NCBI GenBank assembly: GCA_964448075.1
Contig: CAYUUR010000002.1
Coordinates: 94,010 to 158,009 of the forward strand
Length of the DNA stretch: 64,000 nucleotides
Source of the DNA: an uncultured Candidatus Saccharibacteria bacterium
Lineage (GTDB): Bacteria; Patescibacteriota; Saccharimonadia; Saccharimonadales; CAYUUR01
Direction of reading: 5' to 3'
Shown: piece after piece, positions 5,443-63,326 of the stretch
How the letters are laid out: each line of letters opens with the position of its first letter
Numbering within the stretch: the first letter of the stretch is position 1
Program-made: the position numbers and the translations under genes
The notes under the pieces: generated by a model
What the model was told of the DNA's origin: nothing
Database searches by the model: none
The model's input: the letters and a program-made list of their open reading frames with translations, nothing else

Positions 5443-6123
5443 CTACTGAAGGATAACACTTTTGAGAGATTCTGGTGTCAGATTAGCCATGGCGTGAGCG
5501 TTTTTAATGTCATAGGTTCCAACTTTTATCCGCCTCAAATCAGACATATACGCGCCAGTGGCAAGCATTTCACCGATGTCGCGCACTAAAGAACGAATAT
5601 AGGTACCGCTCGAAACATGGGACGTAAACTTAACAAATGGAAAGTCGTATGACACTTCCGTAATAGCATGGATGGTTACTGTACGTGGCTCCATTTTGAC
5701 TTCCTTACCCGCGCGAGCAAGCTTGTACGCTCGTTGACCGTTCACCTTGATGGCGCTGAAAGCCGGTGGAGTTTGCTGAATCTCACCAACAAAAGACTGT
5801 AAGGTCTGTTTTATTTCCTCAATCTCCGGTCTTCGGTCTCCAGTCTGAGTTTTCTCACCCTCTTCATCATCCGTTGTACTCGTCTCGCCAAGCTTCATCG
5901 TCACTTCATATACTTTGTCGAGTTTAGAGAACTCCTCGGCGCGTTTACAGTAACTTCCCAGGACAACAATCATGAGACCTGTCGCTAATGGGTCGAGTGT
6001 GCCGGTGTGCCCTACTTTGGGCTTCTTGAGCCCCGTTTCACGCTTCACCTGGCCTCGAACCTTAGCCACGACGTCAAAACTCGTCCAGCCTTTTGGCTTA
6101 TCTATAAGCAGAATTCCATCCAT
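5443..6123 (-). CDS. truB: tRNA pseudouridine(55) synthase
   Basis: MDGILLIDKPKGWTSFDVV N-terminus and the GHTGTLDPLATGLMIVVLG catalytic-Asp motif. The start at 6123 has no obvious SD (see findings). Confidence 0.9.
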   Translation of the reverse strand: MDGILLIDKPKGWTSFDVVAKVRGQVKRETGLKKPKVGHTGTLDPLATGLMIVVLGSYCKRAEEFSKLDKVYEVTMKLGETSTTDDEEGEKTQTGDRRPEIEEIKQTLQSFVGEIQQTPPAFSAIKVNGQRAYKLARAGKEVKMEPRTVTIHAITEVSYDFPFVKFTSHVSSGTYIRSLVRDIGEMLATGAYMSDLRRIKVGTYDIKNAHAMANLTPESLKSVILQ

Positions 6124-6145
6124 TAGATTCTACTGTACCACTGAC

Positions 6146-6218
6146 AAGGGAAAAGAGCAGCCCGAGAGACGAATTCATTTCGTCCCCGGCGCGACGAGAA
6201 AAACCGTAGGTTTGTCTC
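6146..6218 (+). repeat. copy 1 of a ~75-nt structured interspersed repeat
   Basis: AAGGGAAAAGAGCAGCC...GACGAA-ttcat-TTCGTC...GAGAAAAACC-gta-GGTTTGTCTC. Alignable end to end with 34697-34771 (reverse complement) and 63165-63241. Confidence 0.85.
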
Positions 6219-6228
6219 TGTTATGAGT

Positions 6229-6278
6229 CTCGTCCAGCCTTTTGGCTTATCTATAAGGAGTAATCCGTCGTAGTTCAT
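6229..6278 (-). pseudogene. displaced truB 5' fragment (ancestral start region)
   Basis: The minus strand reads ATG AAC TAC GAC GGA TTA CTC CTT ATA GAT AAG CCA AAA GGC TGG ACG AG = MNYDGLLLIDKPKGWT. Nucleotides 6229-6257 are identical to 6080-6108 inside truB. It sits 15 nt after the upstream gene's stop, with AAGG about 13 nt upstream. Confidence 0.65.
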
Positions 6279-6293
6279 GACGGACAGTATACC

Positions 6294-8228
6294 TTAGAGC
6301 GGCTGGTTAGGCGGCAATGGTGGCTGCGGACTGCTCATGGTCGGGGGCATAGCCTGTGATGGCATCGGCGGCATCATTGGTGGTGGCACGGGTGGTGGTG
6401 GCGTGGCTGGGCCGCTACTTCCCGAAATATCCTTAGGAGCACTTGGCGGTACAAGATTTGTTGGAACCGTTGATGACACACCGGTGTCGATAATATTTGG
6501 CAAAGGTGGTGCTGGCGAGAACGAAGGCGGGGTTGGCGCACTTGGATTAACAAATGGTTGTGACGCCGATGGCCCAAAGTCGCTATTTACTGATGGCATA
6601 CTCGACTGTAGCGGTTGTGGTGATGTTGCCTGAACAGGAGTTGGTGGTGTGATTGTTGGATTTGGCGGCATACTCATGTCACCACTCGGAGCTGGCGTCG
6701 TGTTGAACGGGTCAGCATTGTTGACCGGGGACGCTGATGGTTTCATATCTGCCCCTGTTGGCGCAACTGAGGGTGATGGCGTATCGCCAAAGGTCGGCAC
6801 AGTAGCCTGTGATGCTGGCTCAGCGGCAGAATCGTGACCAAGATTTAGGTTAACTGGCTGTGCCCCAAGTGCTTGAATTGGCTCAAGATTCTTTTCTGGA
6901 TCACCGCCAACTTCGATAGCCTCATCCACTGCCTCACGGGCGTCTTCTATCTGTTCTTCATGTGACTCTTTATTGTTTTCATCAGAGACTGGCTCATTAC
7001 TGGATGTGTCGTCTGTCTTTTCGTTTGCATTGTTTGAAGCATCTGAAGACTCAGGCAACGGCGCGACTGAAGCTGCCGCAGAACGACTGAGCATACTACC
7101 GTCATCGGTGCGAGGAGCGCCTGCACTCAGCGGATCGGTTGAGGGATCAAGCGACAAATGTTCAGGCACACTATTTGCAGTTAATTTGCCCCCCAGCGTT
7201 GGAGGCTCGAGGGTCATAGTGTTGGCTTTCGGTGGTTCATCAGTTGTTGGCCGAACATTATCAATTGCCGGCCCATTGTCCTCATCTTTTGGCGACAACG
7301 TTTCAGCAGGTTCAGCGTCATCTATCGTCAACGCAATGTCATCATCGTTCGGCTCTGGTAGATCGATCTCTGGTTCGGTTGGCGGCACGGGCTTTTCATC
7401 TTCGACCGGTTTTTCAGGTTCATGCTCAATAGTAAGTTCACCGTCATCTGTCTCAGATGGCTTTTTAACTGTGCTCACTGTCAGGGGTGCGTCAAGCTTA
7501 TTGGCAATCAGTTGCTGGTTGGCGCCTGCCCCCATCAACTCAGAGGCAAGCTTCATGGTTGCAGGGCTCGTCTTCTCATTACTAAAGCGATCCGTTTCGG
7601 CCACAATACCAGTCATCAGTGCAGTAGCTATCTGGTTATCAAAAGCTTCGTGGCTTAATTCTTGCCCAACGAGCGCCATCATTTCGCTCAAACTACTCGC
7701 CTGCAAGTCAACCCAGTTGATAGTGCCAAGACTTCCCTGATCTTTGTTGTTAACCGATATAACAGTGGCGTCGTGCAAGATTCGCCCGTGTGCAACGATG
7801 GCTTGGTCAAGATCTGCTTTCTGATGTACGCCCAACGCCAACACGACATCAACATTGAAATCGCCCTGACTAAAATCTAGGTCTTTATCACTAATACTTG
7901 TTCGATACGGGGTAATGAAGATCTTAACGACAGTATCTTCGACTTTGTAGCGCAGTTTGTCTGCCTTGGATTTATCAAGTGCAATGATAAAATCGCGTAA
8001 CGAATCAGTGTTCTTTTCGAGTGTGTTATCTGGCTGCAAAAACTCCAGTGTCGACGGTACGTCACCACTGAAGACTGCCGCACCACGCTTGCCAACCTTG
8101 TTGAGCAAGAGTGTAAACCCAATACACGCCGCCAATTGATCCACCGTTGGATTGTTGCTGACCGTAACCAACACATTAGTTGCTTCTTTGAGTCGAGCGA
8201 CGAGTGAATCTTTTGCGTTTGGGTCCAT
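6294..8228 (-). CDS. DHH/NrnA-like domain protein with degenerate catalytic motifs and ~400-aa Pro/Ser/Thr/Asp-rich tail
   Basis: The N-terminal ~245 aa align by eye to NrnA-type DHH/DHHA1 (GIVAETDRF vs GIVGDTGRF). However, motif I reads SNNPTVD and the DHH position reads VNNKD. The C-terminal part is low complexity (PPPPVPPPMMPPMP etc.). Confidence 0.65.
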   Translation of the reverse strand: MDPNAKDSLVARLKEATNVLVTVSNNPTVDQLAACIGFTLLLNKVGKRGAAVFSGDVPSTLEFLQPDNTLEKNTDSLRDFIIALDKSKADKLRYKVEDTVVKIFITPYRTSISDKDLDFSQGDFNVDVVLALGVHQKADLDQAIVAHGRILHDATVISVNNKDQGSLGTINWVDLQASSLSEMMALVGQELSHEAFDNQIATALMTGIVAETDRFSNEKTSPATMKLASELMGAGANQQLIANKLDAPLTVSTVKKPSETDDGELTIEHEPEKPVEDEKPVPPTEPEIDLPEPNDDDIALTIDDAEPAETLSPKDEDNGPAIDNVRPTTDEPPKANTMTLEPPTLGGKLTANSVPEHLSLDPSTDPLSAGAPRTDDGSMLSRSAAASVAPLPESSDASNNANEKTDDTSSNEPVSDENNKESHEEQIEDAREAVDEAIEVGGDPEKNLEPIQALGAQPVNLNLGHDSAAEPASQATVPTFGDTPSPSVAPTGADMKPSASPVNNADPFNTTPAPSGDMSMPPNPTITPPTPVQATSPQPLQSSMPSVNSDFGPSASQPFVNPSAPTPPSFSPAPPLPNIIDTGVSSTVPTNLVPPSAPKDISGSSGPATPPPPVPPPMMPPMPSQAMPPTMSSPQPPLPPNQPL

Positions 8229-33988: not shown

Positions 33989-34630
33989 ATGATTATGTGT
34001 ATGAATCAAGTTACTCCCCCGGACGGCTCAGACCCGTACGGCTTTATCCTTAACGACCCACCAAAGAAAAAACGCGCCTTGTTGCCCCAGGGCAGCTCCA
34101 AAAAGCAACGATTAATCATTATGGCTGGCGTGGCAATAGCTGCGCTAACGCTGTTTATACTCATTTTTTCGCTTATTTTTGGTAATCGTGGCGACAGCGT
34201 CAAAAACATTAAGATGGTCGCCGCTCAGCAACAAGAGATTATTCGTATCGCACAGTTAGGTGAAAAACAAGCTCGCTCCGCCAAAACACAAAGCTTTGCC
34301 ATCAGTACCAAGCTATCTATCACCAGTTCGCAGCAGCAAGTTTTTGCTTACCTTACCAAGAAAGACCAGATGCCAAAAGGCAAAGAGCTCGGGCTTGCCC
34401 AGAGCAGCAAGAACGACACAATCTTGCAAACAGCCACGGATAACGGCCAGTTTGATGAAGTCTTTGAAGAGACCATGACGACCCTTTTACAGAGTTACCA
34501 GAAGAGTCTATCCAAGTATTACGACAGTGCTTCAAGCGCAACGCAGAAACAACTCCTCCAAGATGCCTACGTCCAGGCCAAACAGCTGACCACTGAGCAA
34601 TCCGCCGAAGATTCTACAACTACACCCTAG
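33989..34630 (+). CDS. single-pass membrane-anchored hypothetical protein
   Basis: LIIMAGVAIAALTLFILIFSLIF TM segment followed by a Q/S-rich helical domain. The start could be ATG 34001. Confidence 0.5.
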   Translation: MIMCMNQVTPPDGSDPYGFILNDPPKKKRALLPQGSSKKQRLIIMAGVAIAALTLFILIFSLIFGNRGDSVKNIKMVAAQQQEIIRIAQLGEKQARSAKTQSFAISTKLSITSSQQQVFAYLTKKDQMPKGKELGLAQSSKNDTILQTATDNGQFDEVFEETMTTLLQSYQKSLSKYYDSASSATQKQLLQDAYVQAKQLTTEQSAEDSTTTP

Positions 34631-34696
34631 CTATTTAGCTACTAAATCATACGAAAGGCGGATGAATCCTTGGATTTCTTCGCGGCTTCGCCTTAT

Positions 34697-34771
34697 GAGA
34701 CAAACCTAGCGGTTTTTCTCATCGCGCGGTGTGTCGAAATAAATTCGTCACGCCGGCTGCTCTTTTCCCTT
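34697..34771 (-). repeat. copy 2 of the ~75-nt structured interspersed repeat
   Basis: The reverse complement reads AAGGGAAAAGAGCAGCC...GACGAAtttatTTCGAC...GAGAAAAACCgctaGGTTTGTCTC. Flanked by 44-bp direct repeats at 34638-34681 and 34776-34819. Confidence 0.85.
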
Positions 34772-35086
34772 GCTCGCTACTAAATCATACGAAAGACGGA
34801 TGAATCCTTGGATTTCTTCCCAGGGGAGCTGACCACTGAGGATGATGGTATTCCAATGTTTTTTGTTGAGATGATACCCGGGCAAGACCGTTTCGTACTT
34901 CTCACGCAAGGTCGTCGCCAATAGCGGATCGCATTTGAGACTAATCCGTACTGGGTTGGTTTTTTCTGGAATGAGCGCGAACATCTTGTCGTTCACTTTG
35001 TATACTGCTACGCCCTCACCAAAAGGATAATCAAGCACCGCGTTTGGCATGCTCAGTAGATATTCCTCTACTGTCTTATGATCCAT
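34748..35086 (-). CDS. MmcQ/YjbR-family protein (3' end altered by repeat insertion)
   Basis: MPNAVLDYPFGEGVAVYKVNDKMFALI ... LNKKHWNTIIL pattern. The last 7 codons (SKGKEQPA) are encoded by the inserted repeat. Confidence 0.75.
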   Translation of the reverse strand: MDHKTVEEYLLSMPNAVLDYPFGEGVAVYKVNDKMFALIPEKTNPVRISLKCDPLLATTLREKYETVLPGYHLNKKHWNTIILSGQLPWEEIQGFIRLSYDLVASKGKEQPA

Positions 35087-62638: not shown

Positions 62639-62950
62639 ACAGTCGGCGAAAGGGAGGGGTAGCGCACATCGGCAGCCGTCCTCGGAGTAAACTCCTGTGG
62701 GCGGCTTTGATGACCGCACCATCGGTTCAGTATTTACTAAAGTAAATCCGTCCGAGGGTTCAAATCACTCAACAAGATGAAATGCATCAGCGAGCCGAGG
62801 CGTTTCGTCTTGGCGGAAGGGGAGGGATGCGCTTCGCTTGCACGGATTTCACTGCTCGGTACAAGATTCCTGCGCTGCTCAATCCTGTGCGAACCCCTTT
62901 TGCCTTGGGCAAAAGACAGGGTTCGAATCCTTCCCTGTTTCGATAGAAAC

Positions 62951-62980
62951 AAAAAGACCTTGCCAAAGCGAGGTCTTTTT
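62951..62980. terminator. bidirectional intrinsic terminator downstream of tRNA-Ser
   Basis: aaaaagaccttgc-caaa-gcgaggtcttttt: GC-rich 8-bp stem embedded in complementary A5/T5 runs. Confidence 0.65.
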
Positions 62981-62985
62981 CATCC

Positions 62986-63077
62986 TGGCGGAAGGGGAGG
63001 GATTCGAACCCTCGGTATCGGTTGCCCGACACAACTGTTTTCGAGACAGTCCAGTTCAACCACTCCTGCACCCTTCC
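62986..63077 (-). tRNA. tRNA-Ser (anticodon CGA), class II with long variable arm, CCA encoded
   Basis: Folded by hand: acceptor GGAAGGG/CCCTTCC, anticodon arm ACTGT-CTCGAAA-ACAGT, long variable arm, T arm GAGGG-TTCGAAT-CCCTC, discriminator G, CCA. Confidence 0.9.
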
Positions 63078-63164
63078 GTAAGGTAAATCATAGCACAAAT
63101 ACACTAGTATTTTACTCTGTAATATGATAGGATTACCCCTGTTGTATTCGTTTCCATTCTACGG

Positions 63165-63241
63165 AAGGAAAAAGAGCAGCCCGAGAGAAATGTATTTCAT
63201 TTCCCCGGCGCGATGAGAAAAAACCATCAGGGTTTTGTCTC
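63165..63241 (+). repeat. copy 3 of the ~75-nt structured interspersed repeat
   Basis: AAGGAAAAAGAGCAGCC...GAAATG-tattt-CATTTC...GAGAAAAAACC-atcag-GGTTTTGTCTC. Ends 8 nt before tRNA-Arg. Confidence 0.85.
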
Positions 63242-63249
63242 ATTACCTC

Positions 63250-63326
63250 GCACCCGTAGCTCAGCTGGATAGAGCGTTGGCTTGCGGAGCCAAAGGTCGT
63301 AGGTTCGAATCCTGCCGGGTGTACCA
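63250..63326 (+). tRNA. tRNA-Arg (anticodon read as GCG), CCA encoded
   Basis: Folded by hand: acceptor GCACCCG/CGGGTGT, D arm GCTC-AGCTGGATA-GAGC, anticodon arm TTGGC-TTGCGGA-GCCAA, T arm GTAGG-TTCGAAT-CCTGC, A73-CCA. Close to the E. coli tRNA-Arg backbone. Confidence 0.85.

Follow-up and report, generated by a model that had tools for sequence, protein, structure and literature searches.

The 5' end of truB in the 64-kb stretch of contig CAYUUR010000002.1 analysed here (the window, assigned to Candidatus Saccharibacteria by its TruB homologues) carries a small interspersed repeat together with a duplication of about 41 bases of the gene, and truB survives with a new start; the same was found at other gene ends in Saccharibacteria. 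The family to which the repeat belongs appears to be previously undescribed and to span the Saccharibacteria. The repeat is of the small interspersed kind, makes unusually long target duplications and lacks inverted ends. The truB structure is likely the result of an old insertion of a member of this family accompanied by duplication of the target, without any Campbell-type recombination of a DNA that mimics the gene end, as had been proposed in the initial annotation of this DNA.

The 29-mer CTCGTCCAGCCTTTTGGCTTATCTATAAG occurs exactly twice in the 64 kb, at 6080-6108 and 6229-6257, and no match with three or fewer mismatches was obtained in 100 shuffles (0 expected). The coordinates given for this region in the initial annotation all hold. 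Beyond the 29-mer the direct repeat can be followed over 41 nt with 90% identity (6080-6120 and 6229-6269), and all four mismatches are located in the distal 12 nt; a perfect 29-mer beside four mismatches in 12 nt is not explained by plain drift after duplication, as had been argued before. The 120 nt between the two 29-mers hold the core (6146-6218) of a two-hairpin repeat of ~75 nt, which recurs at 34697-34772 (87%) and 63165-63241 (82%). A covariance model run over the window found these three copies and no others, and the truB duplicate flanks one of the three. On the minus strand, the stop codon TAA 6296-6294 of an upstream open reading frame (ORF) of 644 aa is followed by GG-TATACT-GTCCGTC, ATG 6278-6276, the upstream duplicate, a linker, the core, a tail, ATG 6123-6121 and the downstream duplicate. 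The first ATG, 15 nt past the stop codon, opens MNYDGLLLIDKPKGWT and reads ATG AAC TAC GAC GGA TTA CTC CTT ATA GAT AAG CCA AAA GGC TGG ACG AG. The annotated truB ORF starts from ATG 6123-6121 with the N-terminus MDGILLIDKPKGWTS and reads ATG GAT GGA ATT CTG CTT ATA GAT AAG CCA AAA GGC TGG ACG AG, then TTTTGAC. The second truB N-terminus noticed earlier at ATG 6278 is thus confirmed; in addition, it was found to open an ORF of 51 codons that extends to TAA 6125-6123 and is not a dead stub. The region comprises the following features (L numbers denote loci of other genomes):

6286 to 6291, minus strand: TATACT, similar to a -10 box and 7 nt ahead of the ancestral truB ATG, probably the promoter of a leaderless transcript

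6123 to 6278, minus strand: upstream ORF (uORF) of 51 codons, from ATG 6278-6276 through duplicate, linker, element and tail; its TAA (6125-6123) overlaps the truB ATG (TAATG)

6229 to 6269, minus strand: upstream duplicate (U), ancestral truB codons 4-17, GAC GGA ... TGG ACG AG; 6229-6257 is the perfect 29-mer

6219 to 6228, minus strand: left linker ACTCATAACA between U and core; ACTnnTAACw is conserved in all four lineages with the truB insertion

6146 to 6218, minus strand: repeat core, composed of hairpin P1, TCGCGC, hairpin P2 and then GGCTGCTCTTTTCCCTT; covariance-model match of 88.8 bits

about 6196 to 6218, minus strand: hairpin P1 of the truB copy, GAGAcAAACC tac GGTTTtTCTC

about 6157 to 6195, minus strand: hairpin P2 of the truB copy, variable in sequence with compensatory changes

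6124 to 6145, minus strand: right tail GTCAGTGGTACAGTAGAATCTA, specific to the truB locus and containing the uORF stop TAA; the tail is retained in L127 and L126 and has diverged in L002

6132 to 6140, minus strand: possible extended -10 box TGGTACAGT inside the right tail

6121 to 6123, minus strand: new truB start ATG, from inserted DNA; GTG in L002

6080 to 6120, minus strand: downstream duplicate (D), now truB codons 2-15; 6080-6108 is the perfect 29-mer

5443 to 6123, minus strand: truB, 226 aa, with TruB_N and TruB_C_2

Alignment of the truB loci of relatives revealed empty sites, which bears out the claim that the 5' end of truB had received an insertion. In L129 (TruB 89% identical) the gene is uninterrupted and reads ...GGTATACTGTCCGTC ATG AAC AAC GAC GGA ATT CTG CTT ATC GAT AAG CC, and the likewise uninterrupted gene of L004 (82% identical) starts with ATG AGT TAC GAC GGC CTA CTT in the same TATACT-N7-ATG context. 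An insertion at the same junctions as in the window was found in L002 (with L001 and L003; TruB 92% identical), in L127 (N-terminal part near-identical) and in L126 (80%), and three assemblies of a relative with 92% TruB identity have the same truB architecture. The occupied loci have a recognisably conserved linker ACTnnTAACw and a tail GGTGGTAYRGTAGA...TAATG in common. GGTATACT followed by ATG is invariant across all eight aligned truB loci, occupied and empty, and, judged by this conserved TATACT-N7-ATG context, the upstream ATG 6278 is the ancestral truB start, as the initial annotation had it. Since the insertion is common to the window, L002, L126 and L127, it predates the split of these lineages. 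The empty truB of L129 is either ancestral or a revertant that arose by recombination between the two repeats. Because the window is metagenome-derived and its two N-termini resemble alleles of different relatives, the assembly could be suspected of having fused two strain variants of the truB 5' end at a repeat. However, two independent Logan assemblies of the same organism (SRR16481186 and SRR16481187) agree with the window at every base of the 251 nt compared at truB, which shows that the structure is not mis-assembled; furthermore, five other assemblies from relatives have the same architecture, and the junction of U and linker is impossible to obtain by joining an empty and an occupied allele. 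The probability of an artefact is therefore negligible.

The two duplicates differ from each other at 10/41 positions in L002 and at 13/41 in L126 (24-32%); in the window, the values are 0/29 within the 29-mer and 4/12 beyond it. At the divergence seen in L002 and L126, ~7-9 differences between U and D would be expected in the 29-mer of the window, and none was observed. In L127 the upstream duplicate is absent (ATGAACAAC|ACTCTTAACA...), and its downstream 29-mer matches the upstream 29-mer of L002 at 28/29 positions. The Ser codon after TGG ACG is AGT in the window and L127 and TCN in L002, L129 and L004; the double change to AGT is as expected if ...ACGAG was copied off the upstream junction. 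These patterns make it more probable than not that the perfect 29-mer is a recent gene-conversion tract within an old duplication. The machinery required is present, since natural transformation and the integration of DNA by homologous recombination are established for Saccharibacteria (PMC10633639).

Outside truB loci, the 22-nt tail with its ATG was not found, and the tail was for this reason rejected as part of the mobile consensus. It was also considered as a diverged copy of the ancestral promoter region, which would extend the duplication to ~65 nt, but the alignment was no better than that of shuffles (p 0.1-0.98). Since the tail is restricted to truB and cannot be recognised as a copy of the ancestral upstream sequence, the new truB ATG arrived with the insert, in agreement with the earlier claim that the inserted DNA supplies the start codon.

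The family was defined by a search of a contig collection with one genome per species, for which a pattern was built from the three window copies. At least 118 loci matched, often several per genome, and essentially all of them are titled Saccharibacteria, Saccharimonadia or Saccharimonadales; the core repeat pointed out in the initial annotation is thereby counted in other genomes. The covariance model gave 120 matches in 100 sources. The forward-strand consensus is composed of an optional small hairpin P0 at the left end (GCGGCTTCGCC, common to one subfamily, or GCGCCTCCGGC), the hairpin P1 with the consensus (T)nATGAGAcAAACC-tac-GGTTTtTCTCAT, the invariant TCGCGC, the hairpin P2 and then GGCTGCTCTTTTCCCTT; besides TCGCGC, the segment GGCTGCTCTTTTCC is invariant. 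The sequence of P2 is wholly different between copies and its pairing is always kept. Outside the core, a left linker of 5-13 nt and a right tail of 3-24 nt are copy-specific. Copies are single, and where two are present within one locus they are 0.5-4.5 kb apart.

The fold was evaluated by RNAalifold and by covariance-model alignment of the 120 copies. In total, 97.6% of the pair cells were paired, 13/17 pairs were changed on both sides and 299 cells were compensated; 0/500 shuffles reached these values and controls with the partner slid were paired to at most 60.5%. The single-sequence fold of the truB copy is unconvincing alone (z = -1.6), and the structure rests on covariation. G-U pairs are almost absent, also from P2, which fits a fold that works on both strands or in DNA but is not decisive; they were too few to choose the functional strand. 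P2 falls into discrete classes that recur across species, for example AAAATGGAATACATTTT, AAAAAGACGTGACTTTTT and TTTGGCAAAGCCAAA, and different classes are carried by orthologous copies at truB (window and L127 versus L002 and L126), at msrA, at the gene of L057 and L064 and at tRNA-Arg. P2 must therefore have been exchanged or replaced at the orthologous truB site and cannot select the target, and a function as target guide was rejected.

With Rfam 15 at gathering thresholds, only two tRNAs passed in the whole window, and a search of 6050-6300 with E up to 10 gave a best match of 14 bits against a threshold of 60 and nothing relevant. The 51-aa ORF across the element has no Pfam match. A comparison of the left and right 30 nt of 127 copies for terminal inverted repeats gave a mean best score of 4.66, compared to 4.83 with shuffled ends. 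A search for the half-sites of an autonomous parent element in ~1 Mb of flanking loci gave no sign of one: 99 left halves and 119 right halves were found next to 132 full matches, which is no excess. No description of the element for Saccharibacteria or Patescibacteria was found in the literature.

Flanking direct repeats that abut the element were present at 17/117 copies with enough flank (~15%). Their lengths are 48, 45, 44, 44, 42, 37, 49, 31, 30, 29, 29, 27, 26, 24, 19, 19 and 17 nt, many of them are perfect, and the longest near-perfect ones measure 37-48 nt; when left and right flanks were paired randomly between loci as a control, the score was never above 10. The duplicated targets are first codons (msrA, tpiA, lepA, an aminotransferase and truB), last codons or Shine-Dalgarno-plus-ATG junctions in ribosomal-protein operons. 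The bracketing repeats have a different sequence at every site, equal to that of the local gene, and the core is dissimilar to the targets. The second copy in the window, at the 3' end of yjbR, is bracketed in the same way:

34638 to 34819, plus strand: second family copy with target duplication; the 44-nt repeats 34638-34681 and 34776-34819 (43/44) equal the 3' end of the minus-strand yjbR; 91.9 bits

34682 to 34775, plus strand: 94-nt insert of this copy, with P0 hairpin GCGGCTTCGCC, core 34697-34772 and CTC

The end of yjbR in the window reads GAAGAAATCC...GATTTAGTAGC (44 nt), followed by the 94-nt insert, the same 44 nt again and TAAATAG. In L130 (YjbR 91% identical), GAT TTG GTA GCA AAG TAA is followed directly by the convergent gene and the site is, therefore, empty, as it is in relatives at 91-92% identity. 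The empty site of L130 and the host origin of the 44-nt repeat identify the yjbR duplication as a target-site duplication, and the yjbR copy is younger than the truB insertion. The yjbR frame now enters the element and ends with ..LVASKGKEQPA; the old end ..LVAK* persists as the downstream repeat. YjbR homologues of 113-114 aa were examined as further insertions and rejected: P0128 alone has a C-terminus encoded by the element, and the extensions of the others are natural tails unrelated to it.

A family copy is also located at the same yjbR gene end of another species (L133:759-894), where no flanking duplication is present; an extra insert of ~36 nt with a small hairpin (GGGGCCCCCGCAAAACCTGTTTTGAGGGGTGATAGTA) lies inside its P1 loop and resembles a nested insertion. 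In the window, the stop codon of the plus-strand gene 33989-34630 abuts the original yjbR stop codon (34631-34633, minus strand) with no spacer (34628-34633), and this convergent pair had no intergenic space for terminators before the insertion. Other gene ends carry the element in two species each, at an identical or almost identical nucleotide, namely the gene ending in ..APLEKL* (L057/L064), msrA (L066/L056) and tpiA (L039/L055), and within these pairs the P2 class, linker and tail differ; they represent either ancient shared insertions whose similarity was maintained by conversion or preferred sites that were hit repeatedly. Copies at junctions of ribosomal-protein operons (L027, L032, L038, L046 and L117), where the upstream stop overlaps the downstream start (..AAGGAGGCCAAGTAATG), have the 17-19-nt junction duplicated on both sides, and the element lies within a short ORF that starts and ends in TAATG.

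These data bear directly on the Campbell- or att-like recombination put forward in the initial annotation. According to that model, a tiny, possibly circular DNA with the repeat and its own imitation of the truB 5' end entered by a single crossover in the 29-mer and left a hybrid copy on each side; a donor or free circle would carry core, tail and ATGGATGGAATTCTG. The new start codon and the 22-nt tail are indeed foreign to the truB locus, and outside the 29-mer the codon changes are mostly synonymous or conservative (GAC GGA TTA CTC versus GAT GGA ATT CTG). Likewise, L064 encodes LEKL-stop twice beyond a perfect 45-mer, with five synonymous differences and an element-side version that resembles the L057 allele, and the three gene ends occupied in species pairs (msrA L066/L056, tpiA L039/L055 and the L057/L064 gene) carry different P2. 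However, such a synonymous pattern is also expected if recombination with other alleles ends inside the duplicate beside the heterologous insert. At 34638-34819 both repeats are host-derived and L130 provides the empty site that a target duplication predicts, the repeats are site-specific in sequence, and the conserved core shares nothing with the targets. Furthermore, the truB body of the window is nearest to that of L129 (89%), which has the codons GGA ATT, and the downstream copy thus looks native rather than imported, and the copies of L002 and L126 differ throughout, as is typical of an old duplication and not of a crossover product. A recombinase was not found among the immediate neighbours scanned (TruB, an ABC-F-type ATPase, YjbR and an RNase T-like exonuclease), and the insert of ~100 nt is too short to encode one. 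Recombination with a gene-end mimic is thus very unlikely and did not withstand the comparison. Integrative elements of the att type resemble the family in that an insert is bracketed by direct repeats of 20-50 nt and the gene end is restored on one side. They use a recombinase and one fixed att sequence which exists before integration; in contrast, the repeats of the family differ per site and derive from the target, and the core is unlike the targets.

How truB is expressed in its new arrangement was deduced from the conserved signals around both start codons. TATACT-N7-ATG, which in a distant relative is present directly before ATG GAC GGA ATT, is probably the layout of a leaderless gene, and this would explain the missing Shine-Dalgarno sequence of truB. 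Transcription would still start from the TATACT promoter, and the leader of the mRNA would be very short or absent; translation would begin at the old ATG and proceed through 51 codons to the UAA in UAAUG, after which the ribosomes would re-initiate on the truB AUG, which lacks a Shine-Dalgarno sequence. The uORF of L002 also has 51 codons and a stop-start overlap (TAGTG), despite a different P2 and tail. Among the loci with a duplicated start, in 12/13 the frame opened by the upstream start traverses the element and ends -9 to +11 nt from the real start, often in TAATG. Only 45% of the frames across the cores are open, which gives P about 5e-4 (~2e-3 with only eight loci taken as independent). 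When a bridging ORF was required to begin no farther than 80 nt upstream of the core and to terminate where a reading frame of at least 70 aa begins, 31/114 copies had one, 14 of them with an exact overlap of the TAATG type. The stop codon in TAATG on the new truB start suggests translational coupling, and whether uORF and truB are in fact coupled by termination and re-initiation we consider evenly balanced on the strength of this geometry. Alternatively, the tail may hold a second leaderless promoter, composed of TGGTACAGT, 8 nt and ATG. This motif is present in the window, L127 and L126 and absent from L002; since the uORF of L127 is truncated, L127 must depend on something like the tail promoter.

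The third copy of the window is located next to a tRNA gene:

63163 to 63263, minus strand: third family copy; covariance-model match of 76.1 bits over a span that includes flank into the tRNA; no flanking duplication

It lies in the spacer between the divergent tRNA-Ser and tRNA-Arg, and a gap of 6-7 nt separates its left end from the 5' end of tRNA-Arg (63250-63326, opposite strand). The tRNA-Arg copies of the window, L011, L050 and L071 share 50-55 nt of the tRNA, those of the window, L049, L050 and L079 share the right-flank motif CAACAGGGGTAA(TC), and P2 differs among those inspected (window, L050 and L071). In the family as a whole, the left end abuts the 5' end of an opposite-strand tRNA in 29/127 copies (0-10 nt, median 4) and that of a same-strand tRNA in one copy. 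A promoter for the adjacent tRNAs in the reverse strand of the element was considered and rejected, since inspection by eye gave no convincing -10/-35 pair at a usable distance.

This bias in placement and orientation, the conservation of orthologous copies across species and a core much better conserved than the flanks would be expected of a functional module of the host, such as a terminator, an element for RNA processing or stability, or a protein-binding site at gene and tRNA boundaries, with the truB duplication produced by local recombination. In addition, P2 on the forward strand is a G+C-based hairpin followed by CTGCTCTTTTCC and resembles an intrinsic terminator. However, a scan with consensus promoters and terminators at both bracketed copies did not call the element, the copies occur in both orientations relative to neighbouring genes (about 2:1), and in truB the forward orientation would terminate the transcript of the conserved promoter. 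Presence/absence polymorphism with target duplications also argues against a host module as the whole explanation, which we regard as unlikely; function and mobility are compatible with each other. The conserved copies upstream of tRNAs and the near-invariant core across species point to an unrecognised RNA or DNA signal, and cultivated, transformable strains of Saccharibacteria exist in which such a signal could be tested.

At truB, in our reading, a copy of the small, non-coding two-hairpin repeat (~110 bases, 6124-6228) inserted after about codon 17 in the shared ancestor, and ~41 nt (possibly 44) of the target were duplicated. The data show the insertion and its empty sites, the family and its fold, the duplicated targets, the geometry of the ORFs and both divergence and exchange between the duplicates, whereas staggered cuts, the TATACT promoter, coupling and conversion are deductions. 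The element would have been joined to cuts staggered by ~40-50 nt, followed by gap filling, with the enzyme acting in trans. The downstream duplicate stayed joined to the truB body, with an in-frame ATG of the inserted DNA directly before it, and the upstream duplicate to the probable old promoter and the old start. The duplicates have since diverged in the relatives, and in the window genome a stretch of 29 nt would have been re-homogenised by gene conversion. Staggered cuts are proposed because the longest near-perfect duplications lie at 37-48 nt; the strongly conserved core and the precedent of IS1549 and IS1634 also speak for an enzyme. We consider enzyme-made cuts possible, with a probability somewhat short of even.

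Several observations weigh against insertion with target duplication followed by conversion and coupled translation. Both ends of the insert vary outside the core, which is unusual for a transposase with defined ends, the family has no terminal inverted repeats, its score being that of shuffled ends, and several duplications begin exactly at the start codon, contrary to what simple staggered cutting would predict. With the immediate neighbours scanned, the family could be linked to no transposase, integrase or reverse transcriptase, and half-sites that would flag an autonomous element are not in excess in ~1 Mb of flanking loci. Many copies share orthologous positions between species (the one upstream of tRNA-Arg is an example), and the cores are far better conserved than the flanks (the cores of L002 and L126 are identical at a TruB identity of only ~80%); conserved cores and sites suggest that the element serves the host or is continually homogenised, more than they suggest a purely selfish transposon. 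Gene conversion was deduced from patterns and not observed directly. Coupling is not universal: L127 lacks the upstream duplicate and its uORF stops 54 nt before the start, and the tail has a possible promoter of its own (TGGTACAGT).

The irregular ends could also have been produced by a templated insertion that needs no dedicated transposase, in which a strand growing in replication or break repair leaves its template, copies an existing element (or its RNA) with some of its flanks and returns 40-50 nt upstream, at a point set by microhomology, for example at ATG or TAATG, so that this stretch is duplicated. This would account for the lack of inverted repeats, for variable ends with locus-specific linker and tail and for the variable length of the duplications, and polymerases might stall at the stable hairpins. 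For most of the start-region cases (L066, L039, L055, L052, L027, L032 and L038) the duplication boundary is at most 2 nt away from the start codon, which would follow if source copies usually lie just upstream of a start codon; in addition, no mobilising gene was found in the ~1 Mb of flanking loci. Against it, the longest near-perfect duplications at 37-48 nt suggest a fixed geometry, and the high conservation of the core, together with the dozens of copies in a genome, suggests that a protein recognises it. Furthermore, none of 126 copies had flanks that would mark it as a source, flank matches being orthologous loci or a shared P0. Templated insertion is thus improbable in our view.

[quoted passage not shown] Like MITEs, the members of the family are short (about 75-110 nt), non-coding, multi-copy and hairpin-forming, they are located at gene boundaries and inside transcription units, and they are polymorphic in presence and duplicate their target. 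Unlike MITEs, they have no terminal inverted repeats, duplications of 17-49 nt that are neither short nor fixed (2-10 nt in MITEs), a variable sequence outside the core, many copies conserved at orthologous sites across species and no known related full-length insertion sequence. Target duplications that are long and variable (8-514 bp) were described for IS1549 and IS1634, without a mechanistic model being proposed at that time (PMC2266710). The novelty that the initial annotation had seen in long duplications which regenerate gene ends therefore holds for the family, of which no description was found, but not for long, variable duplications as such. The IS1634 family and the Saccharibacteria element both make long direct repeats of variable length on insertion; however, IS1549 and IS1634 have 1.5-2 kb, a DDE transposase and inverted ends, whereas the Saccharibacteria element has ~100 nt, encodes no enzyme, lacks inverted ends and has recent duplications of 37-48 nt.

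The bridging ORFs, which stop on the downstream start (TAATG in the window, TAGTG in L002), have a parallel in mycobacterial interspersed repetitive units (MIRUs). As reportedly described by Supply et al. in 1997, these are intercistronic, have a small ORF that overlaps the stop and start codons of the flanking genes and are thought to keep translation coupled. To our knowledge, regeneration of gene ends has not been reported for MIRUs. They differ from the family, the copies of which are not tandem, in being tandem minisatellite units with no conserved two-hairpin fold and no long target duplications. The palindromic elements of Rickettsia are said, after Ogata et al. in 2000, to be small palindromic repeats in protein-coding genes that are translated as part of the ORF. 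They stay in frame inside the protein; in Saccharibacteria, by contrast, the element is confined to a short ORF of its own or, as in yjbR, to a short extension of the C-terminus, and the gene end is duplicated. It is a tentative and rather doubtful idea that a new kind of bacterial mobile element is at hand: a folded DNA (or RNA) of ~80-110 nt without inverted ends, for which an enzyme or template switching would copy ~45 nt of target and so rebuild gene ends, which would be kept as bridging ORFs and as a fixed element upstream of tRNAs, and whose inner hairpin would be swapped among discrete variants.

The genomes of Saccharibacteria are tiny and tightly packed, and nearly any insertion should be harmful. 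The family illustrates one route by which a mobile sequence can spread in such genomes, namely by duplicating enough of the target to rebuild the gene end, and the open frame left by the element may pass ribosomes to the rebuilt gene. For annotation, it accounts for displaced starts, short conserved 'hypothetical' ORFs and odd C-terminal extensions in Saccharibacteria; for the field of mobile DNA, it adds a small element with target duplications of 40-50 nt and no inverted ends.

Two neighbourhoods in which family copies are located showed further features. The 644-aa protein encoded upstream of truB (6294-8228, minus strand) has no Pfam match and a long, proline-rich C-terminal half of low complexity, and the position of its ORF is conserved in every relative examined. 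In the more distant L136 (positions 241-400; TruB 75% identical), truB and the upstream gene are separated by a spacer that holds a different sequence of 160 nt with a long inverted repeat (GGGCTTTCGCACAGTGCA ... TGCACTACTGTGGCGAAACCCC), and this intergenic position seems to be taken by a different structured insert. Near the third copy, the 3' end of tRNA-Ser plus 8 nt of flank is present a second time as a 29-nt copy (90%; 62803-62831 versus 62978-63006), 175 nt downstream of the tRNA. The stretch between the two contains a T-arm-like GGTTCGAATCC, Rfam and ARAGORN call nothing there, and the copy may be a relic of an integration event or a decayed tRNA.

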